64,000 bases of DNA from positions 1,446-65,445 of the forward strand of contig CAVTRY010000008.1 in the NCBI GenBank assembly GCA_963737265.1, given 5' to 3'. Of the stretch, positions 23,064-63,945 are shown piece by piece. The notes beneath the pieces are model-generated. The model searched no databases and was not told the origin of the DNA. It saw nothing but the letters and a program-made list of their open reading frames with translations. The DNA is from an uncultured delta proteobacterium (GTDB lineage: Bacteria > Myxococcota_A > Polyangia > Fen-1088). Numbering within the stretch: position 1 is the stretch's first letter; each line of letters opens with the position of its first letter. The translations under genes were made by a program, and so were the position numbers.

Positions 23064-23073
23064 CCCCACCACC

Positions 23074-42535: not shown

Positions 42536-42625
42536 AGCGCTTGCCCGAACGCCGGGTAAGGTCCGCAGCCCAACGAATCTGCACGCCGGGCGGCCGGGTG
42601 ACCTTTTCCGCCGACCGGCGGGTGC
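42536..42625. repeat. 42-bp tandem repeat (~1.5 copies) containing palindrome ACCCGGC-G-GCCGGGT variants
   Basis: ..GCCCGAACGCCGGGTAAGGTCCGCAGCCCAACGAATCTGC ACGCCGGGCGGCCGGGTGACC... Followed by a ~190-bp block that is conserved upstream of A2, A3 and A4. Confidence 0.7.
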
Positions 42626-42812
42626 GCCTTGGGCGTCCGGTCAGGCGTTCGGCGTCACGGGTTGGTTCGAGCGAGCGAGTGCGTGCCTATCTTCCGGGTC
42701 GGGGTTAGCATGTCGCGGCTAATAGCTACGTGGATCCGCGGCCCGCGTGTCAAACCGGGCTTCGGTTTCAGCCACCGACCAAATCGACGAATATCCCACA
42801 GAGCCGACCACC

Positions 42813-45778: not shown

Positions 45779-46891
45779 ATGGGCAAAGTCTTCATCAACG
45801 GTCGTCTCGCCGTCTGGGAAAACGGCCCCGGAATGTCCATCGCCTTCCCCGACGTGTGCCTGTGCCCGCCCGGTCCACCCGCCGGACCAGTCCCGGTTCC
45901 GCTCACCAACAACGTCACCGCCCAAGATCTCGTCAACTGCGCCGCCACCGTCTTCATCGACGGCCAGCCCGTCGCCCACCGCGATTCCTACTTCGCCAAA
46001 TCCACCGGTAACGAGGTATCCCGCAACACCGGCGGCGGCGTCACCAGCCACGCCGTGCAAGGCAAAGCCTACTTCGGCGGCTACTCACCCAACGTCCTCA
46101 TCGAAGGCAAGCCAGCCGTCCGCCACCTCGACCTCGTCACCCACAACCACCTCGACCCCATGCCCACCAACTGCCCGCCCGCTGTCTGGGTCTCCGAAGC
46201 CAGCCCCGACCTGCCGCCGCCAATCCCCAAGAACAAGACCAACGTCCTTCAGGAAGGCACGGATTGGATTGAGATATCCTTGGTGGACGAAGCCGACGAG
46301 CCCATCCCGTACACGCCGTTTCGCTTCAAGACACCAAAGCAAGCCTTGGTCGAGGGCCGTTTCCTGTGGGGCGGGAAGCTGACCATTCGCAAAATGGCCC
46401 AGGGACGGTGCGAGCTGGTTCTGCCAGAAGTCGATGCCATAGCCGACCCAGCCAATCCAAACTCGTCCGCCCGCGCCCCGGCGAACACGATTCGCTATCG
46501 TCCGGGGCAGCCGCTCTTGCTCGTGTCGGGGAAAAGCTACCGTGTGTTCGTCGCGCAAATGCGAACGCTGTTTGTCGAGCTGCCCCTTCCCCCATCGGCG
46601 TCGAAAGCCGACCGCTACACCTTGCGAAGCGATGACGGCACGTACGGCGTGTCCAAGACTGTCGCCGACGATCTGGTGAAGGAAGACGACATCCTGACCC
46701 TGGCGTTCCCGAAAGTGACCGCGGGGCCGAAGTACGCCCTGGCCCACGACGACTGCGCCGGACACTCTCACGACATCTTCGCCGGGTTGACCTTCGACGA
46801 GCTGTTCCCGAAAGAACCGTGCTCGCCTTATGACGAGCCGGTGGCGGCCACCGATCTACGATTTGGCGTTGGGCACCGCAGAAACGGATAG
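45779..46891 (+). CDS. cassette 2 protein C (PAAR-like DUF4150)
   Basis: 370 aa, a few substitutions away from C1 and C4. Same DUF4150 motifs. Confidence 0.85.
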   Translation: MGKVFINGRLAVWENGPGMSIAFPDVCLCPPGPPAGPVPVPLTNNVTAQDLVNCAATVFIDGQPVAHRDSYFAKSTGNEVSRNTGGGVTSHAVQGKAYFGGYSPNVLIEGKPAVRHLDLVTHNHLDPMPTNCPPAVWVSEASPDLPPPIPKNKTNVLQEGTDWIEISLVDEADEPIPYTPFRFKTPKQALVEGRFLWGGKLTIRKMAQGRCELVLPEVDAIADPANPNSSARAPANTIRYRPGQPLLLVSGKSYRVFVAQMRTLFVELPLPPSASKADRYTLRSDDGTYGVSKTVADDLVKEDDILTLAFPKVTAGPKYALAHDDCAGHSHDIFAGLTFDELFPKEPCSPYDEPVAATDLRFGVGHRRNG

Positions 46892-46895: not shown

Positions 46896-48908
46896 ATGGC
46901 CAGGCACAAGATCGACTTCGAGGAAGAAGACCCCAAGCCCAACTGGCGCTACGAGGTCAAGCCCCGGCTCTACACGCCACCTGGCCAGAAGCCCCCGCCG
47001 CTGGCCAACAAGAACGGCCCGACACGGGCGGTGGTTCGCGTGGCGCCCGCGGATCGGCGGCTGGACAACGAGACCCCTGCCGATCCGCAGTCTCCCGACA
47101 TCACCGGTAGATACCAAAGCGATGGCGCCAAGGAGGCGTCAGGCAAGCCCGCCTTCCTTCTGCACGTGAACCAGGCCGGCAAGCACGTCGAGGCCTTGCT
47201 GGTGCGGCTGCCGCACGGACATCAGCATGGCTCGATCGCGCAGCAGCGGTTCTATGCGGATCTGAAGGGTGATGGCGTGTTCGCCGCGAGCACGCCCACC
47301 GTAGCCGAGGGAGCCACGGTCGAGGGTGTGTCCGGCGAGATTCGCCAGCAGGGCGAGGAATTGATCGTCAACCTGCCGGTCTGGGATGGCCTGGACGGGA
47401 CCACGTTTTATCTGCGCGACAAGCGCGCGACCTTTCTCGATCAATCGTTGGATTCCTTGATCGAAGCCGAAGGCGCGGTGGTGGGACAGGATCCGGAGAT
47501 CAAGGCCCTGGTCGAGAGCATCGAGAACCTGCCACTTTCGGATGCCCAACGATCTCGTCTGCGCCAGGTCTTCACACCCGAGATACTCGATCCATTGCTT
47601 AAAGATTGCTTCGGCCACGGCTCGAAAGACGACGACATCAGAAGATCCGCGGTCGTTGGCTCGGCCGAGCAGTTGGACATTTACCTTGGCAAGGCGTTCG
47701 ACCAGTCAAGCTGGTCACACCAGCAATGGCCGCAGGTGCTTCAATACGTGCGCACCGTCCTGACGATGCAAACGGTGGTCATCAACGACAGTCGACGCTC
47801 CGAATTAGATTGGATCGAGACGGTCGCCGCCGAGGCCATTCCCGATGCCGACTATTTGGTTCATCCGACGGCCACCAACCCAGACAAGGGCCAACCAACC
47901 GAGTTTCCCAACTTGACTCGGCTTCTTGGGATCACGGAGCAACACGGGAGCGGCGCCGTTCACAAGTACCTGGTGGATGTCGATTTGACGGCACACGACA
48001 CCTCGCCCAAGAAATTCGGTCTGGCGCCGTTTCACTTGCGGGCATACGAAGGAACAGTCACCGTGTCAAAGATGGATTCGACAGGCCGAAAGGATTGGGT
48101 GCATCCCTACAAGATGGCGCTCGTTGGTCCGGCTGTCATCCTGGGTAAGGGTGGCGCGGAAGACGTCAAGGCAAGGGGCTCATTCGAGTCGAGCACCAAC
48201 TGGACACCCGCCGACTTTCCAGGGTGGGTGATTCTCCACGATGCTGGTGTATGGGCGGGAAATAGGCTTCCAGTAACGAAGGAACTCGTTGCTGTGGGCC
48301 ATCGCGAGCCTGTCCTTGTCCTAAGAGGTCGGGGCAACCATCGTGAGCAACTGTTCCCGCTCAAAGGCGCTGATGCGCTCCGGGAGGGGCTCGGTGGTGA
48401 GTACTCGTTCACGTGGGGAAGAATCTACGACCTGGACACGGACCTGTCCGAAATCGACTACAGCCGCCCGATGAAGCACTCGGAACGAGTGGTGACGACG
48501 CGAACAGGGGACAACGTGCACTTCGAGTTCGGGAGCGCTTTGCTGAAGGGCGCCGGGCGATATCAGGTGCGGGTATTGTGCGCGATTTGGTTGCGCTGGT
48601 TGGAATCCGCGAGAAGCACCCTTCGCATCGTTGGCCACGCCGACACGGTGGATACGAAACGGCGCAACGACGAGCTTTCTCTCATGCGCGCCACGAATGT
48701 CGTCCGGGCGATCGAGGGCATTCTTGGCCCCAAGCTCGCAATTCCGGATATCAAGCCCCTGGGGCTAGGGAAACAAGAAGCCGACGAGGACAAAGCAGCC
48801 AGGGAAAGGGCAGTCGGGCACCGGCTTCGGGATACGCCCGACGTTCGATTCCGAAAAGTCGAGATCGAGCTGAATGGGCAATGCGTGCTGGTGTTGTGGG
48901 GAGCTTGA
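46896..48908 (+). CDS. cassette 2 protein D (OmpA-like C-terminus, candidate effector)
   Basis: 670 aa. The first ~340 aa are essentially identical to D1, the patch at about aa 345-480 is diverged, and the OmpA-like C-terminus is conserved. Confidence 0.65.
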   Translation: MARHKIDFEEEDPKPNWRYEVKPRLYTPPGQKPPPLANKNGPTRAVVRVAPADRRLDNETPADPQSPDITGRYQSDGAKEASGKPAFLLHVNQAGKHVEALLVRLPHGHQHGSIAQQRFYADLKGDGVFAASTPTVAEGATVEGVSGEIRQQGEELIVNLPVWDGLDGTTFYLRDKRATFLDQSLDSLIEAEGAVVGQDPEIKALVESIENLPLSDAQRSRLRQVFTPEILDPLLKDCFGHGSKDDDIRRSAVVGSAEQLDIYLGKAFDQSSWSHQQWPQVLQYVRTVLTMQTVVINDSRRSELDWIETVAAEAIPDADYLVHPTATNPDKGQPTEFPNLTRLLGITEQHGSGAVHKYLVDVDLTAHDTSPKKFGLAPFHLRAYEGTVTVSKMDSTGRKDWVHPYKMALVGPAVILGKGGAEDVKARGSFESSTNWTPADFPGWVILHDAGVWAGNRLPVTKELVAVGHREPVLVLRGRGNHREQLFPLKGADALREGLGGEYSFTWGRIYDLDTDLSEIDYSRPMKHSERVVTTRTGDNVHFEFGSALLKGAGRYQVRVLCAIWLRWLESARSTLRIVGHADTVDTKRRNDELSLMRATNVVRAIEGILGPKLAIPDIKPLGLGKQEADEDKAARERAVGHRLRDTPDVRFRKVEIELNGQCVLVLWGA

Positions 48909-49486
48909 TGCGTGGAAGGAACGCGTGTCTCATCGTCGGGCTCGCCTTCAGTTCAGCGAGTGGTTGCCACAAGAAGACGCCAGCAGGAATTTCCTTCGCC
49001 TATGTCGACGCCGTCTCCGCGTTGGCCGATCAGACGGCAAAATACTGCGATCATCTTTTGCGCGAGAGTGCTTGCTACAGCGCCTTGAGCATAAATCCCG
49101 ACAATGAACACCGACTGGCCGTTCCTTTGCCTGACAATCCGCTGGGTGGCATCCCCGAGCTGCGCCAACTGAAAGCAAAATGCGATTCCGCCGACGAGCA
49201 CAACAACCACCAACTCTGGTGCGACGCCAAGAGCGTAGTCAAAACCCGACTTCCAAGAGAATGTGAAATGTTTAGCCTCTTCGGCTCTTGGCCAGTGGTC
49301 AACCGGCTAGAGAAGGAAGGCGTCACCGTGTCAGTGGTGGACGACCCGGCATGCAAGGCTCCGTGGGTCGAGGTTGCGGCGGTCCGAAAAACGCCCGGCG
49401 GAGACTGGTTCTCGCTCAACGCCTACTTCCTACCGAAAAAGTGGCTCGATGAGCATCCAGAGGACGCCAAGGATGCAAAGAAGTAG
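48908..49486 (+). CDS. cassette 2 protein E (small lipoprotein, candidate immunity)
   Basis: Lipobox GLAFSSASGC. TGATG overlap with D2. About half of its residues are identical to E1, and the last ~45 aa are identical. Confidence 0.6.
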   Translation: MRGRNACLIVGLAFSSASGCHKKTPAGISFAYVDAVSALADQTAKYCDHLLRESACYSALSINPDNEHRLAVPLPDNPLGGIPELRQLKAKCDSADEHNNHQLWCDAKSVVKTRLPRECEMFSLFGSWPVVNRLEKEGVTVSVVDDPACKAPWVEVAAVRKTPGGDWFSLNAYFLPKKWLDEHPEDAKDAKK

Positions 49487-49556: not shown

Positions 49557-49680
49557 GCTTACCCGACGGCCGGGCAAGGTCTGCGCGCGAGCGGGTCTGC
49601 TCATCCTACGGCCGGGTAAGCTCCGCAGCCCAGCGGATCTGATCTCCGGGCGGCCGGGTAACCTTTTCCGCCCACGGCGG
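49557..49680. repeat. 42-bp tandem repeat (~2.5 copies)
   Basis: TTACCCGACGGCCGGGCAAGGTCTGCGCGCGAGCGGGTCTGC / TCATCCTACGGCCGGGTAAGCTCCGCAGCCCAGCGGATCTGA / TCTCCGGGCGGCCGGGTAACC.. Confidence 0.75.
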
Positions 49681-49871: not shown

Positions 49872-50780
49872 ATGAGACTACCCGCAGCCTTGCTCTTTCT
49901 CCTCGCCAGTCATCCCGGTCATCCCGCCAACGCCGGCGTGCCCAACACCGTGGCCATCGCGGTGGACACCATCGGCCTCGGCCAGAAAATCACGGCGCCG
50001 GTGCGGGGTGGCATCGCGGCCCAGGTCCTGGATGGTCTCCGCGCTGCCAACATCGATTTCATCCCCACCGAGGAAACGAAGATCGTTGCGCGGATAGTGG
50101 ATTGCGCTGGACTCGAGTGCCTTCGCAATATCGCCAAGTCCGAGAACCTGGATTGGGTGGTGCAGGTTCGGGTGCGGGCCAGGGAAGCAACCAAGAAGGG
50201 CAAGTCTGACTACGTGGTCTCGATTACCGTGGTCCGCGATGCGCCCGATCGCGGTGCATGGCACGAGGAAGCCGACTGCCCCGGTTGCGAGGGCGGCGAG
50301 ATCGAGCACATGGCTTCACTGATGGCGGGGGAGATCGCTGGACACATTAAGGTCGATGCTCCGCCAGCCAGCACCGCGCCCGCGCCGGCAAAGGCGCCTT
50401 CCGTGGTGGCAACGCAGCCGGCACCGTTGCAAGCACCGCCGCCGCCAGCGACCTTCGTAAAGCCACCGCTACCAGCGCCGGAGCCTGCCTGGTACGTGCC
50501 GCGGTATTGGTCGGTGGGTACGCTCGCGGGCGGGGCGGTGTTGGCGGGGGCGGGTGTTTATCTGCTGCACATCGACGGGCGAGGCACCTGCGACTTGGCC
50601 GCGCCGAACCAACAATGCGCGGAGAGGTACAAGACGCAGGGCCTTGGCATCGGCATGGTGGCCGGTGGTGGTTTGGCATTGCTCGGCGGACTTGCGGGGC
50701 TGACCCTTTTCGCACCTCCCGCGGGCAGCACGGGCATTGGATTCGATGGCTCTTCAATCTCGATCTCGGGGGAATTCTGA
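49872..50780 (+). CDS. cassette 3 protein A
   Basis: 302 aa, near-identical to A2 and A4. Confidence 0.7.
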   Translation: MRLPAALLFLLASHPGHPANAGVPNTVAIAVDTIGLGQKITAPVRGGIAAQVLDGLRAANIDFIPTEETKIVARIVDCAGLECLRNIAKSENLDWVVQVRVRAREATKKGKSDYVVSITVVRDAPDRGAWHEEADCPGCEGGEIEHMASLMAGEIAGHIKVDAPPASTAPAPAKAPSVVATQPAPLQAPPPPATFVKPPLPAPEPAWYVPRYWSVGTLAGGAVLAGAGVYLLHIDGRGTCDLAAPNQQCAERYKTQGLGIGMVAGGGLALLGGLAGLTLFAPPAGSTGIGFDGSSISISGEF

Positions 50781-52807
50781 TGTGGTCACAAAGCGCAACA
50801 CGCGGACTTCTTCTGGTGGCAATGCTGACAGCGGGTTGCACGGAGCGGAATCCCGACTACTGCGCCAAGAACAGCGATTGCAGCGGTCATCGCATCTGCG
50901 ATGTCGTTCGAGCAACCTGCGTGTCGCCCGACGCCGCCGTCACGCCGGTGGTCGACGCGGGCGTCGCCGACGTGGCCGCGGATACTGCCGTGGACTCGCC
51001 GGTGGTGGTCGACGGCGGCGGATTTCCTGTCGACGGCGGCGGATCTCCTGTCGACGCATCCACCGTGGAGGTCGCGCAGACCAGCGAGGCTGGGCGCCCA
51101 GTCGATGGTCGCGTGGCCGATGCTGCCCTGCCGGATGTCTACGTTCCGGATGGGCCGGGAACCTGCGGGGTGAACGGCGACTGCGCCGATCCGACGAAGG
51201 CGTTTTGCGTGGCGGGCGTGTGCGTGGGATGCCAGGGCGCGGGCGCGACTGCGTGCGGGGCGCAGGCGTGCGATACGGTTTCGGGGAAATGCGTGGAATG
51301 CGTCGCCGATACTGGCTGCACGAAAGATCCGGCAAAGGGTTTCTGCGTGCTGAATGCTTGCACGGCTTGCAGTACCACGGGGGCGACTGGCTGTGCCGCG
51401 CGCGCGGATGGGAAGACGGCTTGCGCACCTAGCGGAACGTTAGCCGGTCAGTGCGTGGAATGCATCGCGGATGCCGGCTGCACGAAAGACCCGACGAAGG
51501 CCTTCTGCGTGGCGAACGCCTGCACGGGCTGCGGCGCCAGCGGGGCGACCGGCTGTGCCGCGCGCACGGATGGGAAGACGTCCTGTGCGGCTAGCGGAGC
51601 CTCCGCCGGCCAGTGCGTGGAGTGTCTCGCCGACACGGGCTGCACGAAAGATCCGGCGAAAGGCTTCTGCGTGGCCAACGCCTGCACCGGCTGCAACACG
51701 CCCGGCGCGACGGGCTGTACCAGGCGAACCGACGGCAAGCTTGTCTGCGCGCCCAGCGGAACGGCGGCCGGGCAGTGCGTGGAATGTACCGGGGACAGCC
51801 AATGTACCTCCAATGTGGCCAAGGGCTTCTGCGTGGCGAACGCCTGCACGGGTTGCAACACCCCAGGCGCGACAGGCTGTGCGGCGCGGACCGATGGCAA
51901 GGCCGTCTGTGCCGCCGCCGGGACCCTTGCCGGGCAATGCGTGGCCTGCGCATCCAGCGGCGATTGCAAGGTCGCGACGAGCCCAATCTGCACTGCCGTC
52001 AACGTCTGCGTCGCCTGCACGGCGGACAGCCAGTGCGTGGCAAAGCTCGGCGCGACAGGAAACCCGGGCGTGTGCATGAGCAACCTCGACGGCCATTGCG
52101 CGACCGATGCGGAGACGGTCTACGTGCAGAACGTGACGGCGTGTTCGAATAATATCGCGACCGGCGGAACGTCGGCGGTGCCCTACTGCGATACCGCGTT
52201 CGGTGTGAACGCGGCGGCGAGCACCAACGGAAAGATCCTGACCGTGCTGGCCGGGGCCTTGAGCAGTTTCTCGGTATCGGTTTCGGCCAAGCCGCTCACC
52301 ATCGTCGGAAAGGCCGCGACGATAACCCCCATTGGATTCAACGACGGCATCGACGTCACGGCCGGCGAGGTGTACCTGCGTGGCATCACGGTCCAAGGAA
52401 GCCTGAGCGCGCAAACCAAGATCGGCATCAACGCCGGCGCCAGCGTCACCCTGCACATGGATACCTGCTCCATCGTCGGCAACCCCGGCGGCGGCATCCT
52501 GCTGAACGGCGCCGCCTTCGACATCGAGAACACGACCATCACAGGGAATGGGCCGGGAACGTTGGGACTCGCTAGCTGGGGTGGAATCGCAGTCAATAAC
52601 CCACCCGCCAGCGGCCCGACGACGCTCAACCTGGTGACGGTTCAGAACAACAAGCAGGTGGGGCTGGCCTGCTCCGCCGCCGTCTCCGGCACCGGTGTGC
52701 TTGCTACCGGGAACGCAGGTGGCGTGGACATCGGCGCCTCCTGCGGCTTCACCTCCTGCTCTACCTCCGCCGCCAGTGCTACCTGCGGAGCACAGGGCAC
52801 CCCGTAA
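50780..52807 (+). CDS. cassette 3 protein B (Cys-rich repeat / beta-helix lipoprotein)
   Basis: 675 aa with the same lipobox and repeat architecture. TGATG overlap with A3. Confidence 0.75.
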   Translation: MWSQSATRGLLLVAMLTAGCTERNPDYCAKNSDCSGHRICDVVRATCVSPDAAVTPVVDAGVADVAADTAVDSPVVVDGGGFPVDGGGSPVDASTVEVAQTSEAGRPVDGRVADAALPDVYVPDGPGTCGVNGDCADPTKAFCVAGVCVGCQGAGATACGAQACDTVSGKCVECVADTGCTKDPAKGFCVLNACTACSTTGATGCAARADGKTACAPSGTLAGQCVECIADAGCTKDPTKAFCVANACTGCGASGATGCAARTDGKTSCAASGASAGQCVECLADTGCTKDPAKGFCVANACTGCNTPGATGCTRRTDGKLVCAPSGTAAGQCVECTGDSQCTSNVAKGFCVANACTGCNTPGATGCAARTDGKAVCAAAGTLAGQCVACASSGDCKVATSPICTAVNVCVACTADSQCVAKLGATGNPGVCMSNLDGHCATDAETVYVQNVTACSNNIATGGTSAVPYCDTAFGVNAAASTNGKILTVLAGALSSFSVSVSAKPLTIVGKAATITPIGFNDGIDVTAGEVYLRGITVQGSLSAQTKIGINAGASVTLHMDTCSIVGNPGGGILLNGAAFDIENTTITGNGPGTLGLASWGGIAVNNPPASGPTTLNLVTVQNNKQVGLACSAAVSGTGVLATGNAGGVDIGASCGFTSCSTSAASATCGAQGTP

Positions 52808-52829: not shown

Positions 52830-54047
52830 ATGGGCAAAGTCTTCATCAACGGTCGTCTCGCCGTCTGGGAAAACGGCCCCGGCATCTCCATCGCCTTCCC
52901 CGACGTGTGCCTGTGCCCGCCCGGTCCGCCCGCGGGTCCCGTCCCCGTGCCGCTCACCAACACCGTCACCGCCCAAGATCTCGTCAACTGCGCCGCCACC
53001 GTCTTCATCGACGGCCAGCCCGTCGCCCACCGCGATTCCTACTTCGCCAAATCCACCGGTAACGAGGTATCCCGCAACACCGGCGGCGGCGTCACCAGCC
53101 ACGCCGTGCAAGGCAAAGCCTACTTCGGCGGCTACTCACCCAACGTCCTCATCGAAGGCAAGCCAGCCGTCCGCCACCTCGACCTCGTGACCCACAACCA
53201 CCTCGACCCCATGCCCACCAACTGCCCGCCCGCCGTCTGGGTCTCCGAAGCCAGCCCCGACCTGCCGCCGGTGCAGCCGAGGAGGTACACGAAGGTACTG
53301 CACGAGGGCAAGGAATGGGTCGAGATCGACATGGTGGATCTCGAAGGCGAAGCCGTCGCCTACGAGAACTACAGTGCGAAGACCCCCACCGGCGAAAAGA
53401 TCGAAGGCCGCAGCCTTCTCGCCGGAATCGTCACGTTCAAAGGGCTCGCCAAGGGCGACTGCCGGATCGTCTTTCCCAGTATCGACGCCAACCCGTTTTC
53501 GCCGGGCCGCAAGCCAGCCGACAAGATCGACCCCGGCACGTCCAGCCGGGGCGAGCGCTCGAAGGCGGACAAGATCTACATCGCCGGCAAAACCCTCGCG
53601 CTGGCCACCGGAAGGAAGTACCGGGTCGAGCTTCCCCGCCGGCCGAGCTTTTGGCTTGAGCTGACCATCGAGCACCGCAATGCCGAGCCACAAGGCTGCG
53701 CGTACGTCCTGCGCAGCACCGACGGAACCTACCAAGCGGAGCGGACGTTGGCGGACGACCTATCTCGCAGCGCCGGCTCCCTCGTTTTGCAATTCGCGGA
53801 TCTGCTGGCGGACAAGGCGTACACGCTGATTCACAAGTTGGGCAGGGATGCCGGAACGCGTGTGCTCTTCCACGACATGCCCTACGAGCGCCTGCGCGGG
53901 CACGCGTGGAACGCCTACGAGGCGCAGCCCGACGGCGAGTCCCCCATCGAGGATGTGACGGCCGACTTGCACCGGCTGCTGCATGCCCGCGAGCTCGGCG
54001 ACGACCCCGACGAAGAGACATTGCCGGGTTTCGCGGGGCCGGCATGA
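52830..54047 (+). CDS. cassette 3 protein C': PAAR-like DUF4150 with a divergent C-terminal extension
   Basis: The N-terminal ~150 aa are identical in type to C1, C2 and C4. From ..SPDLPP|VQPRRYTKVLHEGKEWVEIDMVDLEGE.. (about nt 53271) the sequence is a distant variant. 405 aa. Confidence 0.8.
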   Translation: MGKVFINGRLAVWENGPGISIAFPDVCLCPPGPPAGPVPVPLTNTVTAQDLVNCAATVFIDGQPVAHRDSYFAKSTGNEVSRNTGGGVTSHAVQGKAYFGGYSPNVLIEGKPAVRHLDLVTHNHLDPMPTNCPPAVWVSEASPDLPPVQPRRYTKVLHEGKEWVEIDMVDLEGEAVAYENYSAKTPTGEKIEGRSLLAGIVTFKGLAKGDCRIVFPSIDANPFSPGRKPADKIDPGTSSRGERSKADKIYIAGKTLALATGRKYRVELPRRPSFWLELTIEHRNAEPQGCAYVLRSTDGTYQAERTLADDLSRSAGSLVLQFADLLADKAYTLIHKLGRDAGTRVLFHDMPYERLRGHAWNAYEAQPDGESPIEDVTADLHRLLHARELGDDPDEETLPGFAGPA

Positions 54048-56362
54048 GCCCGATTCCAGCCCGTGCCGAGGTTGGCATCAACTTCGTGCGGTGGGATGCG
54101 CGCTTCCTCTTCTATCGCGATCTGCCGCGACCAGCGGGTAGCCCCGGCGACAGGGTGACCACGCCGGTCAAGAACTGCTGGCTCTACATCTTCGACCCAT
54201 TCGGACCATTGCTGTTCGAGGTCTATGCCGATGCCGATGGCCTGTATCACGAGGTCGATACGACGAAGCACGCCGGCAAGGACATCAGACCGTTCGCGCT
54301 GGAAGGCCAGGCGGTGCGCCCCACCCTGCCGCTGCTGGCTGGCCAGCGGACGTCCAAGGGGACGATCCCCATCTTCCACTGGATCTTGCCGTCGCCGTTT
54401 CAATTGCCGTGGTCACGCTTCCCGCACCTCACGCACCTGGAAACAAACAACGACGGCCCGCGTGGCGATTTCAGAAAATGGGCCGAGGGCACCCGCCAGC
54501 TATCTCACTTCGTGCCGAGGTTTCAAGAAGACACAGGGAACCCGTTGCCCGAAACGGCGGTTCCTTCCCCGTGGCTGCATGCCCAGGCCCTCGGCCGATG
54601 CTTCCAAATCGCGCAAGAGCGGTGGCTGTCGGGCTTTCTCGACGACACCGCCCGCATGGAACGCAAGACCCTGCGCTCGTACGTGCGATCCATCGAATCG
54701 ATCGTGGGCAAAGAGCGCTTCGAGCGCGACATGCTGGATCTCATCGACAAGCTCGCCTTCGAGACCGAGGAGAGGCACGACAAGGAGCAAGAGGAGTTTC
54801 CGCCTACCGAGCTGGTCGGGGCGCGCACCGCGCTGATCGGCTACCTGAAAAGCCCACGCTATCTGGCCATGCGCGACGATGCCCTGGCGTCGCCCGACCC
54901 GCGCGCCCTGGCGACTTTCGCCGAGATCCAGGCCACGGCGGAATCGGGCCTGGAAGGCGTGGCCGGCGATCCTGCTTACCGCGCGTCCGTGTTGCGCGAC
55001 AACCCCAAGCTTTTCAAGAAAGAGGCCGAGGAGGTATCGACCGAGGTTAAGTCCTTCATCGAGGCCCACCCGGAAGCCATGTACGACCAGCCCGCGAGCC
55101 TCGGCTGGAAGGAACAGCGCAAGGCCCTCAAATCGTACTGGTACCTGGTCAAGGCGTATATCGCACAGATCGAATGGATCGCGCCGCGCAGGTTGACGAG
55201 GGATCTCAAGACCTTTGGCCGCGAGCTGTTTGGCGTGCTGGTGGAGTTCGATTTGGCCGAAGGGACGGCGGCTCGGCGGATGCCCGACGGAACCATCAAG
55301 TGGCCACGCCTCGTGGTCAGCCCACAGACCAAGGCCCGTCTGTCCGATAGGTATTCGAACAACCTGGAATGGAACACCTTCTTCGTCGTGCTCGATGCCT
55401 ACAACCTCATCATGGCCTGCCAGGAACAAGCCAAAGGCAAGACCGACATGAAGACCGTGGTGAGCGCCATGGGCGCTTTCCTGAACACCGTGGCCGCCGC
55501 CGTCGAGGCGACATTACAGCGGCAAGGAGCGAAGCACCTGATCGTCACCGACAAGATGATCGCCGAGCTGGCCGAGGGCGCGGGCAAAACCAGCGCGAGG
55601 AAAGGATCGGGAAGCTTCGCGGTCACGCTGCGGAAGTTTAACCAGCCGAAGACGATTGGAGCGATGGGGAAGTTGTTGGGGGCACTGGGGTCTGCCTTCG
55701 AGGCTTGGAGCCAAATTCAGCAGGCGAAAGGGGCGGATTCCGAATTGGACCCAGATGTGGCCCTGGCACATCGAGTTTCGGCAGGGGCGAATATTGCAGT
55801 GACAGCAGGCTATTTCATCGGATTTTTCGGGACCGTGTGTGGAATCGCGGTAGGTACAGCCGTCGCCTGGCCGCTGGCCTTGGTGGCAATTGGCTCGTGG
55901 CTGGTTCTCGGCGGGACGGTCACGGATTTGGGGGCAAAGCTGGTCTTGCTGCATCTGAAGAAGGATCCGCTGGAGAATTGGTTGAAGGTCACGCCATGGG
56001 CGCGTGGGGCAAGATTCCGGATTGAAAGCTTCGACGAACAGGTTAAGGCCTTTCATAGGGCGCTGGTAGGACTGCATGTGAACATCCGCCCCGGCCTCAC
56101 CGGCTTCGACGTGACAGTCGAATCACGAGTTGTCCAGTCCCCCGCCCAGGTCTATCTCGAGCTCGAATGGCTGGGCGAAGCCGGTCCTGAGCCGTTGAAG
56201 AACGCTATGGCACCCATGACAGCAGCGGAATACCTGAGTCCAAGCCAATTCAGACATACCGAGTTCGCTTCGCCCGTGAGGACCGTGACAGCCCGCGTGC
56301 GCCTGCTCCTGGATGGCGAGTGGTATCCGGAGGAGCCGGCGGTGTTCAACTACCCGGAGTAG
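54044..56362 (+). CDS. cassette 3 protein D': unrelated large protein with C-terminal Gly/Ala-rich TM helix cluster (candidate membrane-active toxin, possibly VasX-like)
   Basis: 772 aa with an ATGA overlap with C'. N-terminal ..NCWLYIFDPFGPLLFEVYADADGLYHEV... C-terminal hydrophobic cluster ..ANIAVTAGYFIGFFGTVCGIAVGTAVAWPLALVAIGSWLVLGG... No OmpA-like domain. Confidence 0.5.
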   Translation: MSPIPARAEVGINFVRWDARFLFYRDLPRPAGSPGDRVTTPVKNCWLYIFDPFGPLLFEVYADADGLYHEVDTTKHAGKDIRPFALEGQAVRPTLPLLAGQRTSKGTIPIFHWILPSPFQLPWSRFPHLTHLETNNDGPRGDFRKWAEGTRQLSHFVPRFQEDTGNPLPETAVPSPWLHAQALGRCFQIAQERWLSGFLDDTARMERKTLRSYVRSIESIVGKERFERDMLDLIDKLAFETEERHDKEQEEFPPTELVGARTALIGYLKSPRYLAMRDDALASPDPRALATFAEIQATAESGLEGVAGDPAYRASVLRDNPKLFKKEAEEVSTEVKSFIEAHPEAMYDQPASLGWKEQRKALKSYWYLVKAYIAQIEWIAPRRLTRDLKTFGRELFGVLVEFDLAEGTAARRMPDGTIKWPRLVVSPQTKARLSDRYSNNLEWNTFFVVLDAYNLIMACQEQAKGKTDMKTVVSAMGAFLNTVAAAVEATLQRQGAKHLIVTDKMIAELAEGAGKTSARKGSGSFAVTLRKFNQPKTIGAMGKLLGALGSAFEAWSQIQQAKGADSELDPDVALAHRVSAGANIAVTAGYFIGFFGTVCGIAVGTAVAWPLALVAIGSWLVLGGTVTDLGAKLVLLHLKKDPLENWLKVTPWARGARFRIESFDEQVKAFHRALVGLHVNIRPGLTGFDVTVESRVVQSPAQVYLELEWLGEAGPEPLKNAMAPMTAAEYLSPSQFRHTEFASPVRTVTARVRLLLDGEWYPEEPAVFNYPE

Positions 56363-57341
56363 ACACCTTGCCCTTTGGTGGGGCCAGGTATTTGCGCAGG
56401 AAACCGGCGAGCAGATTCGCGGTCCCGCAGATTGGGGAACAGGAGAAAACCCCCTGAACAATGACCAATTCTCCCGCATCACCATCGCCAACGACCCTGA
56501 CCGCACCCTCGTGAGCGTCGAAGGTGCGTACGGTCCCCCGGTGCCGAAGGAAGACTTCCCTCTTTCCTTTCCGAAAGGTAGCCACGCTGGCACGCCGGCC
56601 GTCATAGACAATCCAGCACGGGCCTAGCGTGCTCAGAATGGCGGCCGCCACGGCTATGACCGTTGCGTACGTTGGAAGAAAAACAAATGGGAAGAAGGCT
56701 ATCCCCGGCGCTGTCAGCATGGCTACCCCCACGCCCACGACCCATTGGCGCGCACTGCCGAAGTTGGCGATGGAGACGCTGTTCTCGTCGTACCCGACAA
56801 CATCGGCTCCGGATTCGGCCAACAAGGGAAGAAAACTTCTTTCGGAATCCTCGCCCAGCGACGCTCCTAAAAAGCGTTCGAGGATCGCCGAGGCTTCGAC
56901 CCGTTCGACCTCGTCTGAGGTCACACGTGCGGGAACAGACGCAGTCGGGAAATCCCAGTCCGCTGGGGAGCAGCCATGTGGAAGTTCGATGGTCCACTGA
57001 CCATCCCCCAGATCTATGAACATGCTTCTGGTTCCGCGTTTCAGCACGAGAAAACGCCGACCACGATCGGCTAGCCAAATGAGGAAGAACGTCGGGAACG
57101 CCCCAAGTAGGAGCCAAGGAATCGAAGGCCCGAGCTTGGAATCCACCCATCTGGCAATCACCAAAAAGAGCGCAAGGAGAAACCAGAACATCGTAAACCA
57201 CGCCGCCTTGGCGATGGCGGGAGCCGTCAAGGGAAACACAATCTCGTCGTCGCTGATCTTCTTGATGCGGTAGCAGCGGCGCAAAAGCGCCTTCTCGTCT
57301 TCCGTGAGATGAGCCGCTGGTGTTTGTGCCCCGTCTGACAT
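56346..57341 (-). CDS. multi-pass membrane protein (candidate immunity protein for D')
   Basis: 331 aa with several TM helices (WFTMFWFLLALFLVIA; WLLLGAFPTFFLIWL; VGVGVAMLTAPGIAFFPFVFL; TVIAVAAAILSTL). Convergent with D', overlapping it by 17 nt. Confidence 0.55.
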   Translation of the reverse strand: MSDGAQTPAAHLTEDEKALLRRCYRIKKISDDEIVFPLTAPAIAKAAWFTMFWFLLALFLVIARWVDSKLGPSIPWLLLGAFPTFFLIWLADRGRRFLVLKRGTRSMFIDLGDGQWTIELPHGCSPADWDFPTASVPARVTSDEVERVEASAILERFLGASLGEDSERSFLPLLAESGADVVGYDENSVSIANFGSARQWVVGVGVAMLTAPGIAFFPFVFLPTYATVIAVAAAILSTLGPCWIVYDGRRASVATFRKGKREVFLRHRGTVRTFDAHEGAVRVVGDGDAGELVIVQGVFSCSPICGTANLLAGFLRKYLAPPKGKVSTPGS

Positions 57342-57483: not shown

Positions 57484-57735
57484 GTCACACGCCGGCCGTG
57501 TAGGCCCCGCAGCTCAGCGGAAGGGCTCACCCGGCGGCCGGGTAAGGTCCGCAGCTCAGCGGAGGCGCTCACCCGGCGGCTGGGTAAGGTACGCAGCTGG
57601 GCGGATCTGCTTACCCGACGGCCGGGTAAGCTCCGCAGCTCAGCGGATCCGCTCATCCGCCGGCCGGGTAGGGTCCGCAGCCCAACGGATCTGCTTACAA
57701 GGCGGCCGGGTGACCTTTTCCGCCGACCGGCGGGT
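57484..57735. repeat. 42-bp tandem repeat (~5.5 copies)
   Basis: Units such as CTCACCCGGCGGCCGGGTAAGGTCCGCAGCTCAGCGGAGGCG, each carrying ACCCGGC-G-GCCGGGT or a close variant. The 57340-57834 ORF with RRPGKVRSSAE repeats is its translation. Confidence 0.85.
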
Positions 57736-57924: not shown

Positions 57925-58833
57925 ATGAGACTACCCGCAGCCTTGCTCTTCCTCATCGCCAGTCATCCCGGTCATCCCGCCAACGCCGGCGTGCCCAACG
58001 CCGTGGCCATCGCGGTGGACACCACCGGCCTCGGCCAGAAAATCGCGGCGCCGGTGCGGGATGGCATCGCGGCCCAGGTCTTGGATGGCCTTCGCGCTGC
58101 CAACATCGATTTCATCCCCACCGAGGAAACGAAGATCGTTGCGCGGATAGTGGATTGCGCTGGGATCGAGTGCCTTCGCAATATCGCCAAGTCCGCCAAC
58201 CTGGATTGGGTGGTGCAAGTTCGGGTGCGGGCCAGAGAAGCAACCAAGAAGGGCAAGTCTGACTACGTGGTCTCGATCGCCGTGGTAGGCGATGCGCCCG
58301 ATCGCGGTGCATGGCACGAGGAAGCCGACTGCCCCGGTTGCGAGGGCGGCGAGATCGAGCACATGGCTTCACTGATGGCGGGGGAGATCGCTGGACACAT
58401 TAAGGTCGATGCTCCGCCAGCCAGCACCGCGCCCGCGCCGGCAAAGGCGCCTTCCGTGGTGGCAACGCAGCCGGCACCGTTGCAAGCACCGCCGCCGCCA
58501 GCGACCTTCGTAAAGCCACCGCTACCAGCGCCGGAGCCTGCCTGGTACGTGCCGCAGTATTGGTGGGTGGGTACGCTCGCGGGCGGGGCGGTGTTGGCGG
58601 GGGCGGGTGTTTATCTGCTGCACATCGACGGGCGAGGCACCTGCGACTTGGCCGCGCCGAACCAACAATGCGCGGAGAAGTACAAGACGCAGGGCCTTGG
58701 CATCGGCATGGTGGCCGGTGGTGGTTTGGCATTGCTCGGCGGACTTGCGGGGCTGACCCTTTTCGCACCTCCCGCGGGCAGCACGGGCATTGGATTCGAT
58801 GGCTCTTCAATCTCGATCTCGGGGGAATTCTGA
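57925..58833 (+). CDS. cassette 4 protein A
   Basis: 302 aa, near-identical to A2 and A3. Confidence 0.7.
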   Translation: MRLPAALLFLIASHPGHPANAGVPNAVAIAVDTTGLGQKIAAPVRDGIAAQVLDGLRAANIDFIPTEETKIVARIVDCAGIECLRNIAKSANLDWVVQVRVRAREATKKGKSDYVVSIAVVGDAPDRGAWHEEADCPGCEGGEIEHMASLMAGEIAGHIKVDAPPASTAPAPAKAPSVVATQPAPLQAPPPPATFVKPPLPAPEPAWYVPQYWWVGTLAGGAVLAGAGVYLLHIDGRGTCDLAAPNQQCAEKYKTQGLGIGMVAGGGLALLGGLAGLTLFAPPAGSTGIGFDGSSISISGEF

Positions 58834-60862
58834 TGTGGTCACAAAGCGCAACACGCGGACTTCTTCTGGTGGCAATGCTGACAGCGGGTTGCACGGAGCG
58901 GAATCCCGACTACTGCGCCAAGAACAGCGATTGCAGCGGTCATCGCATCTGCGATGTCGTTCGAGCAACCTGCGTGTCGCCGACGCCGCCGTTGCGCCGG
59001 TGGTCGACGCGGGCGTCGCCGACGTGGCCGCGGATACTGCCGTGGACTCGCCGGTAGTGGTCGACGGCGGCGGATCTCCTGTCGACGGCGGCGGATCTCC
59101 TGTCGACGCATCGACGCCGGTGGAGGTCGCGCAGACCAGCGAGGCTGGGCGCCCAGTCGATGGTCGCGTGGCTGATGCTGCCTTGCCGGACGTTTACGTT
59201 CCGGATGGACGGGGAACCTGCGGGGTGAACGGCGACTGCACCGATCCGACGAAGGTGTTTTGCGTGGCGGGCGTGTGCGTGGGATGCCAGGGAGCGGGCG
59301 CGACTGCGTGCGGGGCGCAGGCGTGCGATACGGTTTCGGGGAAATGCGTGGAATGCGTCGCCGATACTGGCTGCACGAAAGATCCGGCAAAGGGTTTCTG
59401 CGTGCTGAATGCTTGCACGGCTTGCAGTACCACGGGGGCAACCGGCTGCGCCCTGCGTTCGGACGGGAGGACGGCTTGCGCACCTAGCGGAGCCTCGGCC
59501 GGTCAGTGCGTGGAATGCATCGCGGATGCCGGCTGCACGAAAGACCCGGCGAAGGCATTCTGCGTGGCCAACGCCTGCACGGGCTGCGGTACCAGCGGGG
59601 CGACCGGCTGTGCCGCGCGCACGGATGGGAAGACGTCCTGTGCGGCTAGCGGAGCCTCCGCGGGCCAGTGCGTGGAGTGTCTCGCCGACACGGGCTGCAC
59701 GAAAGACCCGACGAAGGGCTTCTGCGTGGCCAACGCCTGCACCGGCTGCAACACGCCCGGCGCGACGAGCTGTACCGGGCGAACCGACGGCAAGCTCGTC
59801 TGCTCAACCAGCGGAACGGCCGCTGGTCAATGCGTGGAATGCTCCGGAGACAGCCAGTGCACCTCCAGTGTGGCCAAGGGCTTCTGCGTGGCGAACGCCT
59901 GCACCGGTTGCAACACCCCAGGCGCGACAGGCTGTGCGGCGCGGACCGACGGCAAGGCCGTCTGTGCCGCCGCCGGGACCTTGGCCGGGCAATGCGTGGC
60001 CTGCGCATCCAGCGGCGATTGCAAGGTCGCGACGAGCCCAATCTGCACTGCCGTCAACGTCTGCGTCGCCTGCACGGCGGACAGCCAGTGCGTGGCAAAG
60101 CTCGGCGCGACAGGAAACCCGGGCGTGTGCATGAGCAACCTCGACGGCCATTGCGCGACCGATGCGGAGACGGTCTACGTGCAAAACGTGACCGGGTGTT
60201 CGAATAGCCTGACCAGCGGGACTGCGGCGGCGCCCTTCTGCGATGCCACGATCGGCGTGAACGCAGCCGTGAGCACCAACGGAAAGATCCTGGCCGTACT
60301 GGCCGGGGCCTTGAGCAGTTTCTCGGTATCGGCACCGGCGAAGCCACTCACCATCGTCGGAAAGGCCGCGACGGTAACCCCGGCTGCCTTCAGCGACGGC
60401 ATCGACGTCACGGCCGGCGAGGTGTACCTGCGTGGCATCACGGTGCAAGGAAGCCCGAGCGCGGGAACCAAGATCGGCATCAACGCCGGCACCGGCGTCA
60501 CCCTGCACATGGACACCTGCTCCATCGTCGGCAACCCCGGCGGAGGCATCCTGCTCAACGGCGCCGCCTTCGACATCGAGAACACGACCGTCACAGGGAA
60601 TGGGCCGGGGACGTTTAGTGGACTTCCATGGGGTGGTGTCCTTATACAAAACATTCCCGCAAGCGGCCCGACGACGCTCAACCTGGTGACGGTTCAGAAC
60701 AATAATGGCGGCGGTGTAGCCTGCTCCGGTGCCATCACCGGCACCGGTGTCTTGGCCACAGGGAATACCAATACCGTGAGCCAAATCGGCGCAACCTGCG
60801 GCTTCACCTCCTGCTCCACCTCCGCCGCCAGCTCCACCTGCGGCGCGCAGAGCACCCCCTGA
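58833..60862 (+). pseudogene. cassette 4 protein B, frameshifted after ~49 codons
   Basis: The signal/lipobox exon frame (58833-59057) and the body frame (58790-60862) differ by one base. TGCGTGTCGCC-GACGCC at 58971-58986 lacks one C compared with B2 and B3 (TGCGTGTCGCCCGACGCC). Confidence 0.75.
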
Positions 60863-61995: not shown

Positions 61996-63945
61996 ATGGC
62001 CAGGCACAAGATCGACTTCGAGGAAGAAGACCCCAAGCCCAACTGGCGCTACGAGGTCAAGCCCCGGCTTTACACGCCACCTGGCCAGAAGCCGCCGCCG
62101 CTGGCCAACAAGAACGGCCCGACGCGGGCCGTGGTTCGCGTAGCGCCCGCGGATCGGCGGCTGGACAACGAGACCCCTGCCGATCCGCAGTCTCCCGACA
62201 TCACCGGTAGATACCAGAGCGAGGGCGCCAAGGAGGCGTCAGGCAAGCCCGCCTTCCTTCTGCACGTGAACCAGGCCGGCAAGCACGTCGAGGCCTTGCT
62301 GGTGCGGCTGCCGCACGGACATCAGCATGGCTCGATCGCGCAGCAGCGGTTCTATGCGGACCTGAAGGGGGACGGCGTGTTCGCCGCGAGCACGCCCACC
62401 GTAGCCGAGGGAGCCACGGTCGAGGGTGTGTCCGGCGAGCTTCGCCAGCAGGGCGAGGAATTGATCGTCAACTTGCCGGTCTGGGATGGCCTGGACGGGA
62501 CCACTTTTCATCTGCGCGACAAGCGCGCGACCTTTCTCGATCAATCGTTGGATTTCTTGATCGAAGCACAGGACGCCATTGTCGGCGCGAACGAGGCCAT
62601 TAGGAAACTGATCGAAAGCACGGAAGAGCAGCCTCTTTCCGATGCCCAAAGAAGCCGTCTGCGCCAGGTGTTCGCCCCGGAGGAGATCAACCCTCTTCTC
62701 AAGGCCTACTACGACTCCAGCTCGGCCGATAGATCGAGCGCTCTGGCCGACCGTCTGAGGCTGGCGGAGAGGCTGGACGGCTATGTTCGGGATGCACTCG
62801 ACCAGTCGAGGTGGGCCGCACAGCAAGAGCCGCAGGTCCTCGAATACGTCCGAACCATCTTGGCCACTCAGCGTGCCGACATGAACCAGAGCCGGCGCTC
62901 CGAACTGGAGTGGATCGAAGCCATCGTCGCGGACTCTTTCGATACCAAGAAAGCGCTGGTGACGGGATACGACGGCGTTTTCGACTGGAGCAAATTTCTG
63001 CCAAACTTGCGTCGCCTGCTGGGCACCTCGGAGCCCCTCAGAGATGGTGCTGTTCGCGAGTATCGAGTCGTGGTCGACCTGAAAGCCCACGATACCTCGC
63101 CCAAGAAATTCGGTCTGGCGCCGTTTCACCTGCGAGCATATGAGGGAACCATCGATATCACCCAGCTCCCATCGTCCGCCGACAAGGGCTGGTTTCACCG
63201 CTATAAGATAATCCTCGTGGGTGGTGCTGCGATTTTGGGCAAGGGCGGCGCGGAAGCCGTCGAGGCAAAAGGTTCGTTCAAGTCGAGCACCAACTGGACT
63301 CCCGCCGACTTTCCAGGGTGGGTGCTTCTTCATGATGGCGGGGCCTGGGCCGGAAAGAAACCGCCCAACGCGAAAGGGACTCTTGGTGTCGGCCACCGAG
63401 AGGTGGTCCTGGTTCTGAAAGGCCGGGGCAACCATCGCGAGCAACTGTTTCCACTCGAAGGTGCTGATGCGCTTCGTGAAGGAATTGGTACCGAGTACTC
63501 GTTCACGTGGGGAAGAATCTACGACCTGGACACGGACCTGTCCGAAATCGACTACAGCCGTCCGATGAAGCACTCGGAACGAGTTGTGACGACGCGAACA
63601 GGGGACAACGTGCACTTCGAGTTCGGGAGCGCCCTGCTCAAAGGCGCCGGGCGATATCAGGTGCGGGTATTGTGCGCGATTTGGTTGCGCTGGTTGGAAT
63701 CCGCGAGAAGCACCCTTCGCATCGTTGGCCACGCCGACACGGTGGATACGAAACGGCGCAACGACGAGCTTTCTCTCATGCGCGCCACGAATGTCGTCCG
63801 GGCGATCGAGGGCATTCTTGGCCCCAAGCTCGCAATTCCGGATATCAAGCCCCTGGGGCTAGGGAAACAAGAAGCCGACGAGGACAAAGCAGCCAGGGAA
63901 AGGGGTTCATCGCGCGTTCGGGTGATTGCGAAGGCAACGGCGTAG
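61996..63945 (+). CDS. cassette 4 protein D, mosaic and 3'-truncated variant
   Basis: The N-terminal ~200 aa match D1 and D2, and aa ~205-400 are strongly diverged. The OmpA-like region is present, but similarity stops at ..EDKAARER| (about nt 63904) and is replaced by GSSRVRVIAKATA*. No E gene follows. Confidence 0.6.
   Translation: MARHKIDFEEEDPKPNWRYEVKPRLYTPPGQKPPPLANKNGPTRAVVRVAPADRRLDNETPADPQSPDITGRYQSEGAKEASGKPAFLLHVNQAGKHVEALLVRLPHGHQHGSIAQQRFYADLKGDGVFAASTPTVAEGATVEGVSGELRQQGEELIVNLPVWDGLDGTTFHLRDKRATFLDQSLDFLIEAQDAIVGANEAIRKLIESTEEQPLSDAQRSRLRQVFAPEEINPLLKAYYDSSSADRSSALADRLRLAERLDGYVRDALDQSRWAAQQEPQVLEYVRTILATQRADMNQSRRSELEWIEAIVADSFDTKKALVTGYDGVFDWSKFLPNLRRLLGTSEPLRDGAVREYRVVVDLKAHDTSPKKFGLAPFHLRAYEGTIDITQLPSSADKGWFHRYKIILVGGAAILGKGGAEAVEAKGSFKSSTNWTPADFPGWVLLHDGGAWAGKKPPNAKGTLGVGHREVVLVLKGRGNHREQLFPLEGADALREGIGTEYSFTWGRIYDLDTDLSEIDYSRPMKHSERVVTTRTGDNVHFEFGSALLKGAGRYQVRVLCAIWLRWLESARSTLRIVGHADTVDTKRRNDELSLMRATNVVRAIEGILGPKLAIPDIKPLGLGKQEADEDKAARERGSSRVRVIAKATA

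Follow-up and report, generated by a model that had tools for sequence, protein, structure and literature searches.

A putative swappable cargo-docking extension on the PAAR-like tip protein of a tandem cassette array in an uncultured delta proteobacterium

A stretch of 64,000 nucleotides of contig CAVTRY010000008.1 (assembly GCA_963737265.1) from an uncultured delta proteobacterium, hereafter the window, contains a tandem array of four gene cassettes, each with a gene, C, for a PAAR-like protein. The domain that defines these proteins, DUF4150, was recently renamed PIPY and is reported to need a DUF2169 chaperone to form the spike tip with VgrG (PMC11883445, PMC13373197). Cassette 3 differs from the other cassettes in the C-terminal tail of its PAAR-like protein, C', and in the genes downstream, and this observation, made in an initial annotation of the sequence, was confirmed. 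Comparison with related loci showed that the C-terminal extension of C tracks the identity of the next gene, and that the tip domain does not. The best explanation, proposed here from sequence comparisons and structure prediction, is that the extension is a cargo adaptor. It would form a swappable dock on the tip of a type VI secretion system (T6SS) spike, loading in cassette 3 the next-encoded protein, D', and we consider this account probable, though well short of certain.

The tail of cassette 3

The four cassettes, of ~7 kb each, start at 35.8 kb. They are 90-96% identical, with 93-96% similarity between their head regions, and the cassette gene order is A-B-C-D-E, for proteins of ~300, ~675, 370, ~670 and ~200 aa, respectively. 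The window has a GC content of ~63%, and its relatives are all Myxococcales/Polyangia metagenome-assembled genomes (MAGs) or metagenome contigs. The standard C gene used for comparison and the features of the cassette 3 tail are as follows.

45779-46891, forward strand: C2, standard PAAR-like carrier of 370 aa (equivalents are C1, 38739-39851, and C4, 60879-61991)
52830-53270, forward strand: C' head, aa 1-147, PAAR-like (DUF4150/PIPY) tip domain and start of the linker, defined by PF13665 and alignments
53271-54047, forward strand: C' tail, aa 148-405, the proposed cargo dock, with linker, sandwich 1 (~aa 150-215), sandwich 2 (~aa 250-356) and disordered acidic tail (aa 358-405)
54044-56362, forward strand: D', 772-aa candidate pore-forming effector, with an N-terminal beta+alpha region, a helical hairpin (aa 584-629) and a C-terminal beta-sandwich (aa 677-770)
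56346-57341, reverse strand: I', 331-aa candidate immunity protein with 4-5 transmembrane (TM) segments by hydropathy, convergent with D'
57485-57711, forward strand: 5.4 copies of a 42-bp repeat with a hairpin, where cassette 3 meets cassette 4

The C' gene occupies 52830-54047. C' and C2 matched PF13665 with 98.8 and 99.0 bits, respectively, over aa 18/19-125 (gathering cut-off 31), and all 40 aligned family members matched it too, so that the initial classification of C as PAAR-like stands. In the tip motif of the family (PVPVPL), P37-x-P39-x-P41 is invariant and the next residue, L42, nearly so. A P(I/V)P(Y/F) motif near the cone vertex is conserved in PIPY domains (PMC11883445), and the PVPL of this family has Leu at the place of the published Tyr/Phe.

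In protein alignments, aa 1-147 of C' (to ...SEASPDLPP) are identical or nearly identical to C1, C2 and C4. The first 441 nt of the gene contain 8, 11 and 17 mismatches relative to C1, C2 and C4, respectively (97.5-98.2% nucleotide identity to C1 and C2, 96% to C4). Past nt 53270/53271, nucleotide identity to C2 is 53% and amino acid identity to the other copies is ~35%, with the architecture unchanged. When the window was compared to itself using BLAST, similarity of cassette 3 to cassettes 1, 2 and 4 ended at 53269, 53270 and 53270, in agreement with the switch to a distant variant of the same architecture that had been placed at about 53271. Similarity between the cassettes was also said to resume only at about 57700. 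It does restart downstream of the tail, but at 57561-57663, which is inside the array of 42-bp repeats.

Elsewhere in the window, the 42-bp unit is present in ~1 copy at 42541-42600 and in 2.3 copies at 49565-49661. It is confined to cassette junctions, and the number of matches expected by chance is 0. Each unit holds an 8-bp stem-loop (CTTACCCG...CGGGTAAG), and the largest array folds better than 200 of 200 shuffled sequences (z = -4.05). The repeat may be a terminator, an element like the repetitive extragenic palindromes, or a recombination joint.

The C' extension

C' was modelled by AlphaFold2 using a 40-sequence alignment. In the model, aa 150-356 form two all-beta domains with predicted local distance difference test (pLDDT) values of 80-97, and aa 358-405 are disordered. 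Foldseek searches of PDB with the extension returned pilin CnaB-type domains, the Bacillus anthracis TIE protein and teneurin (E values 4e-5 to 7e-4), and the matches were limited to structural sandwiches of the Ig, CnaB or prealbumin-like types. Pfam searches of the extensions in the family found the SpaA 'prealbumin-like' domain in 3 of 40 and CarboxypepD_reg in 1 of 40, all as weak matches. Neither Pfam nor Foldseek gave a toxin-family match or any sign of an enzyme in the C' extension, which models as tandem non-enzymatic beta-sandwiches.

The extension and the downstream gene in related loci

A profile search for C homologues recovered 106 loci, 26 from genomes and 80 from metagenomes. 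The usual order in these related loci is Y-DUF2169-X-C-downstream gene, where Y and X are accessory genes described below. The C homologue and the next co-oriented gene were extracted from each, and removal of near-duplicates left 46 loci, for which three segments were compared, namely the PAAR domain (aa 1-145), the extension (aa 150 to the end) and the downstream gene. The nearest neighbour had a downstream gene of the same family in 40 of 42 cases when the extension was used, and in 18 of 42 when the PAAR domain was used. In partial Mantel tests, the correlation between extension and downstream gene, controlling for the tip domain, was r 0.21, and none of 2000 permutations was as high. The correlation between PAAR domain and downstream gene, controlling for the extension, was r 0.03, a value reached in 510 of 2000 permutations. 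The adjusted Rand index relative to the downstream family was 0.45-0.71 for the extension, as against 0.11-0.19 for the PAAR domain. The covariation that had been proposed from the four cassettes of the window is therefore found across the related loci, as a correlation.

The mosaic seen in cassette 3 also recurs. Among paralogues from the same genome, contig or sample, the tip domains are 83-99% identical and the extensions 25-45% identical, and the switch is always in the linker, at aa 140-163. These mosaics comprise the pairs or sets L010/L016, L006/L012, L018/L021, two copies in L015, L027/L030/L053 and L033/L039, and also L109. In all, eight independent paralogue pairs place the breakpoint at a domain border, after the PAAR domain. 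The initial interpretation would have been refuted by breakpoints away from such borders; it passes this check and is supported overall.

The clearest example is L109, with an array of C-D-E followed by A-B-C'-D'-I'. Its two tip domains are ~96% identical to one another and ~65% identical to the tip domain in the window, and its tails are orthologous to the C and C' tails of the window (85% and 59% identity, respectively). The head of a C protein thus goes with its genome and the tail with its cargo.

The trio C'-D'-I' was found, with the same gene overlaps, in L018, L107, L108/L109, L110 and L111. Over this series, D' drops from 91% to 25-30% identity to the window, and the extension drops alongside it, from 86% to 38-39%. 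The tip domain is 61-66% identical throughout, except in the closest relative.

L107 is a close relative of the window, with flanks that are 90-91% identical at the nucleotide level and a C'-D'-I' tail that is 88% identical. Here C'-D'-I' belongs to the first and only complete cassette, which is followed by a junction and by the remains of a second one. In these remains (L107 15156-16450), a truncated A is fused to the last ~78 codons of D and E is intact; this second cassette reads as a deletion scar with E as an orphan immunity gene. Because L107 carries C'-D'-I' at an identity like that of the flanks, the tail is ancestral, as old as the DNA on either side. The initial wording, that cassette 3 'has exchanged' its tail, implied a recent event with a direction, and this part of the description is contradicted by the relatives. 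A recent foreign insertion was likewise rejected, on the L107 identities (88% for the tail versus 90-91% for the flanks) and on an ordinary GC content at third codon positions, which in the cassette 3 tail is within the range of the neighbouring genes. The arrays do expand, contract and reorder.

Two variant arrangements were seen among the related loci. In L001, L003-L006, L030-L037, L044-L049 and L064, a conserved ~385-430-aa protein with no known domain is encoded between the tip gene and a D'-family toxin gene, and it may be an extra adaptor. In L007, L014, L050, L051, L053, L065 and L070, short tips of ~225 aa, comprising the PAAR domain and the first sandwich, are followed by a ~220-aa protein in which LysM-like and PG_binding_1-like motifs can be read by eye. 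The ~220-aa protein is homologous to the C-terminal half of the fused tips of 453-458 aa found in L013, L073 and L089-L095, and the short and fused forms reflect gene fission or fusion of the extension.

D' and I'

The start of D', at 54044, overlaps the stop codon of C' (ATGA). Ten D' homologues can be aligned with it from the first residue onward; their lengths are 641-808 aa, and 767-808 aa in nine of the ten. The lineage is rare, with 37 representatives among 1.84 billion. D' had been described as a 772-aa protein with C-terminal Gly/Ala-rich hydrophobic helices and as a candidate VasX-like toxin, and both parts are borne out. Hydropathy analysis shows one strongly hydrophobic stretch, aa 584-629, after Gly/Ala-rich helices, and aa 448-675 match positions 662-858 of NF041559, the T6SS effector BTH_I2691 family, with an E value of 7e-17. 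Similar partial matches to NF041559 were obtained with distant D' relatives. No Pfam match was found for D', and sequence and profile searches against PDB chains also found nothing. In the AlphaFold2 model (mean pLDDT 59), the helices at aa 427-654 are of low confidence and the beta-sandwich at aa 677-770 has pLDDT values of 80-90. Tke5 is a member of the BTH_I2691 family and, like VasX, is a depolarising toxin that forms ion channels (PMC12909789, PMC13133200); D' appears to be a distant relative of this group and a putative pore-former.

Strings resembling the MIX motifs (shhPhR, hRxGhhYhh and hhF/YSxxxWS/T) could be read by eye in the N-terminal part of D', namely INFVRW at 12-17, VKNCWLYIF at 41-49 and ILPSPFQLPWS at 114-124. 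The best-conserved N-terminal columns of the family (C45, W46, L47, F50 and W113-W123) are covered by these strings. No MIX/VasX_N Pfam domain was found in D', in 10 close homologues or in 10 distant relatives, and there was no PDB profile match either.

I' overlaps the 3' end of D' by 17 nt. The convergent 331-aa multi-TM protein of the initial annotation is indeed encoded at 56346-57341, with 4-5 hydrophobic segments. In L018 and L107-L111, D' likewise has a convergent I' partner, at 51-86% identity, and multi-TM genes also follow D'-like genes in L008, L010 and L035. As C', D' and I' overlap one another, there is no room for a separate adaptor gene in the cassette 3 tail.

The standard cargo genes D and E

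46896-48908, forward strand: D2, 670-aa cargo protein with a C-terminal OmpA-like peptidoglycan-binding domain (D1, 39856-41874; D4, 61996-63945)
48878-49486, forward strand: E2, ~200-aa lipoprotein with a lipobox, candidate periplasmic immunity protein for D (E1, 41847-42467)

The OmpA domain PF00691 was detected in D1, D2 and D4 with 30.4 bits (cut-off 27.2), and NCBIfam OmpA-type models matched too. The search of PDB chains with D2 gave only weak OmpA-like matches. E co-occurs with D-like genes in 7 loci, and D and E together would fit a periplasm-acting effector with a lipoprotein immunity partner. Both are replaced in cassette 3, as had been noted; cassettes 1, 2 and 4 have the OmpA-type D, then the lipoprotein E, and cassette 3 has D' and I'.

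D1, D2 and D4 are themselves mosaic. Residues 1-190, which are next to the unchanged C tail, share 95-100% identity, D4 is down to 35-60% identity over aa 200-360, and D1 and D2 are 65-68% identical over aa 360-480. The fixed aa 1-190 match what an interface between the extension and the N-terminus of the cargo would predict, which hints weakly at such an interface. The last 25 residues of D4 are unrelated to the ends of D1 and D2, and this points to a frameshift or truncation near 63900, affecting the OmpA domain.

Accessory genes and conserved cassette heads

29957-31672, forward strand: Y, 571-aa HEAT/ARM-like protein (weak HEAT_2 match), first of the conserved accessory block Y-DUF2169-X
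31669-32727, forward strand: DUF2169 (TvpA-type) chaperone gene for PAAR-like/PIPY tips (PF09937, E value 2.7e-73)
32727-33752, forward strand: X, 341-aa accessory protein, whose gene separates DUF2169 from the PAAR-like gene in most related loci
49872-50780, forward strand: A3, 302-aa protein that is secreted or lipoprotein-like and has a C-terminal TM segment by hydropathy, part of the conserved cassette head (open reading frame)
50780-52807, forward strand: B3, 675-aa lipoprotein with 54-aa Cys-rich repeats (162-nt repeats) and a beta-helix-like C-terminal half (weak NosD-like match)

Homologues of Y precede DUF2169 in 15 related loci, and the Y of L107 is 83% identical. The start of DUF2169 was placed by homology to a 352-aa gene call in L107, and its chaperone function is taken from the literature (PMC11883445, PMC13373197). 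It lies 5 kb upstream of cassette 1, a single chaperone gene is present for four tip genes, and its homologues adjoin C homologues in at least 52 of the 106 related loci. Homologues of X were found in 66 of the 106, directly upstream of C in the genome loci inspected. X has no Pfam match and may, tentatively, be the thiolase-like TvpD. A Ser/Thr kinase gene is also located upstream of the array. No match to DUF4123 (Tap) was found in family scans of window open reading frames or upstream of L004.

The A-B pairs, at 35805-38716, 42811-45763, 49872-52807 and 57925-60862, are each located just 5' of a PAAR-like gene with almost no spacing. A is exported, B is a Cys-rich/beta-helix lipoprotein, and A1 is far more diverged than A2-A4. 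Homologues of A and B (43-82% identity) occupy the same position in L107-L111, and A- or B-like matches were also found in L028, L029 and L065. An occurrence of A and B in this contig alone was rejected on this basis, but they are missing from most other related loci examined.

A proposed dock on the spike tip and the alternatives to it

We propose that the tandem array carries cargo cassettes for a T6SS spike and that the region is one of its units. Each cassette would have a conserved head, formed by A, B and the PAAR-like/PIPY tip domain of C, and a variable tail, formed by the C extension, the cargo toxin and the immunity gene. The tip domain is held near-identical within a genome, probably by gene conversion, and all copies would then fit one VgrG spike and the single DUF2169 chaperone. 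The extension, with its two Ig/prealbumin-like sandwiches and flexible tail, would dock the next-encoded toxin onto the spike tip. Once delivered, D' would insert its hydrophobic helical hairpin into the inner membrane of the target and cause depolarisation, and the polytopic membrane protein I' would protect the producer. In cassettes 1, 2 and 4 the tail would instead supply D, as a periplasm-acting OmpA-domain protein, with the lipoprotein E. Recombination between conserved heads and junction repeats would move extension, toxin and immunity gene as a unit. Of this account, the identities of the domains, the breakpoints, the covariation and the conserved trio are observed, and docking, dependence on a T6SS, pore formation and immunity are inferred.

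Several points weigh against this proposal. The extension lies beside D and recombination needs homology, and covariation and linker breakpoints could therefore arise without binding. In about half of the loci with D'-family toxins, a ~400-aa protein is encoded between C and the toxin, so that the dock may sometimes bind an intermediary rather than the toxin. The match of D' to NF041559, at 61.2 bits, is below the curated cut-off of 150 and covers only the C-terminal third. With the D' model, Foldseek searches of PDB returned only FN3/Ig-like matches to the C-terminal sandwich and no Tke5 or colicin match, though a model with a mean pLDDT of 59 is too poor for this absence to carry meaning. 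VgrG, Hcp and T6SS core genes were not found among the ~30 larger open reading frames scanned in the window, nor was VgrG or the T6SS core found upstream of L004, and no VgrG-sized open reading frame is present upstream in L017 or L024. Finally, the proposal does not account for A and B in the conserved head, beside a T6SS tip gene.

The alternative that survives best is that linkage alone accounts for the pattern. The role of the extension would be independent of cargo (a spacer, binding to the target surface, or stabilising the spike), and it would travel with D' only through its position between the recombinogenic tip DNA and the toxin gene. Any breakpoint will appear at the point where homology stops, in this case at the end of the conserved PAAR domain; the Ig-like sandwich is a generic module, and all extension types share the two-domain architecture at ~35% identity. 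However, the pairing of extension and cargo families holds across genomes with heads that are 35% different, even at 25-30% cargo identity, and the extension diverges in step with the cargo when the tip domain does not. Moreover, aa 1-190 of D are fixed beside the C tail while the rest of D is mosaic, and a domain neutral to the cargo would be expected to be homogenised along with the head. On this balance we consider linkage alone unlikely.

That the array does not serve a T6SS is improbable. The PAAR-like proteins would then cap another contractile injection system, or act with A and B in a surface or exchange system of the myxobacterial type. This would suit the lack of any T6SS core gene or VgrG within 64 kb or beside the related loci examined, and the genes for exported A and B directly upstream of each C; PAAR genes can also associate with extracellular contractile injection systems (eCIS) (PMC8651086). 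On the other side, a strict co-occurrence of DUF2169 with T6SS spikes of the VgrG-DUF4150 type has been reported (PMC11883445), D' and its relatives match a T6SS effector family, and the window open reading frames scanned gave no match to a sheath or baseplate family of an eCIS.

Most characterised DUF4150/PIPY proteins have C-terminal toxins (PMC11883445) and the cassette is without a dedicated adaptor gene, which would suit a C' that is itself a specialised PAAR-toxin like Tse7 or Tde2, with D' loaded by another route. The extension as a toxin was rejected, since its fold is all-beta, only structural sandwiches match it and no toxin family does. In addition, the only toxin-family signal in the cassette is on D', and the sole immunity-like gene encodes a polytopic membrane protein, suiting a membrane toxin such as D'. 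An effector domain in C' is accordingly very improbable.

Mis-joining of these 90-96% identical cassettes, with cassette 3 derived from a co-occurring strain, is very improbable; the contig is from an uncultured organism, its relatives are all MAGs or metagenome contigs and array order varies among related assemblies, but in the independent assemblies of L107, L109, L110 and L111, too, C'-D'-I' has A-B heads or C-D-E cassettes as neighbours, the junctions are coherent and their repeat copy numbers graded, and the head/tail mosaic sits within a single gene whatever the array order.

A broader scenario can also be drawn, which is possible but somewhat less likely than not. In this scenario, PIPY tips of Polyangia/Myxococcales would have a built-in two-sandwich dock that replaces the Tap/DUF4123 route for MIX-like pore-formers of the VasX family, combined with a cassette array driven by recombination. 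The heads would be homogenised to one VgrG/DUF2169 set, and the tails would be alleles of ancient origin that undergo duplication, deletion and transfer between lineages, possibly via the 42-bp junction repeats.

Comparison with known systems

The matching of cargo to spike is well understood where it involves VgrG extensions or the accessory proteins Tap, Eag and DUF2169. C-terminal extensions of VgrG, among them transthyretin-like ones, reportedly select the cargo encoded downstream, as in EAEC VgrG1 with Tle1, Pseudomonas aeruginosa VgrG4b with PldA and VgrG5 with PldB, and the VgrG C-termini of Agrobacterium tumefaciens. The arrangement in the window is alike in having a non-toxic C-terminal beta-sandwich on a spike component, with the cognate cargo and immunity gene directly downstream, and in the exchange of extension and cargo together while the structural part is conserved. 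It differs in that the extension is on a PAAR-like tip protein and consists of two tandem sandwiches and a disordered tail, and here binding is something we infer.

The Rhs and CdiA arrays also have conserved heads and variable tails, with recombination at the border and orphan remnants with immunity genes. The head/tail layout, the border recombination and the kept immunity gene (the orphan E in L107) are shared with the cassettes described here, but what is swapped here is a docking extension with a separate toxin gene, rather than a fused toxin tip.

Known DUF4150/PIPY tips, such as Tse7, Tde2, PefE, VP1415 and Serratia Paar1, share the N-terminal PF13665 domain and a locus with DUF2169 and extra accessory genes (PMC11883445, PMC13373197). 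They are single-domain or toxin-fused, whereas the tips described here have a non-toxic two-domain extension and the toxin is encoded by a separate gene. The ratio of chaperone to tip genes is usually 1:1 and here is 1:4, there is no adjacent vgrG, and the motif is PVPVPL rather than P(I/V)P(Y/F).

Tke5 consists of a loading domain, an alpha-helical toxic region and a beta-rich C-terminus (PMC12909789). D' resembles the VasX/Tke5/BTH_I2691 proteins in size, in layout (a non-toxic N-terminal part, then alpha helices that include a hydrophobic hairpin, then a C-terminus rich in beta structure), in its significant partial match to the family hidden Markov model (HMM), and in the adjoining candidate immunity gene for a membrane protein. 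It differs in the strength of that match (61 versus 150 bits), in an N-terminus that no HMM recognises as MIX and in the lack of a Tap/DUF4123 adaptor gene in cassette 3, where loading is proposed to be via the tip extension. In the RIX tethers, which are secreted adaptors of Vibrio T6SS (PMC10435454), an N-terminal delivery domain is combined with a polymorphic C-terminal tail that tethers a cargo effector encoded downstream, which is the layout proposed here, except that the delivery domain in C is the structural tip domain and not RIX. The dock logic is already established for VgrG extensions and RIX tethers. For PIPY tips, so far reported only with a single domain or fused to a toxin, it has not been described.

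If the proposal is correct, the same cap with different two-domain tails, each with its own toxin, amounts to a ready-made specificity experiment, and a Tap-free loading route for pore-formers of the VasX/Tke5 type is suggested. The array would also show how effector arsenals can be built in myxobacteria, which have the largest known PAAR repertoires (PMC8651086), when the structural part evolves in concert and dock-toxin-immunity units are exchanged. If the extension does not bind cargo, what remains is a recombinant effector island of the ordinary kind.

CRISPR-cas and mobile elements upstream of the array

The first 27 kb of the window contain insertion sequence (IS) elements, two arrays of clustered regularly interspaced short palindromic repeats (CRISPR) and type I-C-like cas genes. 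The CRISPR arrays, at 6619-7213 and 10753-14860, share a 37-nt repeat (GTTTCAATCCACGCGCGGGCCCGAGGGACCGCGCGAC), which is present ~9 and ~57 times, respectively. An rve-type integrase gene (8353-9777, reverse strand) is located between them, and one array may therefore have been split by insertion. The adjacent cas genes (17042-23114, reverse strand) encode Cas7, Csd1/Cas8c and Cas3, which suggests that the locus is type I-C. Inverted copies of a ~640-nt sequence, 79-91% identical, flank the CRISPR-cas region (43-680 versus 24536-24685 and 26961-27480). Further mobile elements are an IS21-type IstA/IstB pair and a transposase of the IS91 family (4189-6533; 24731-26236).

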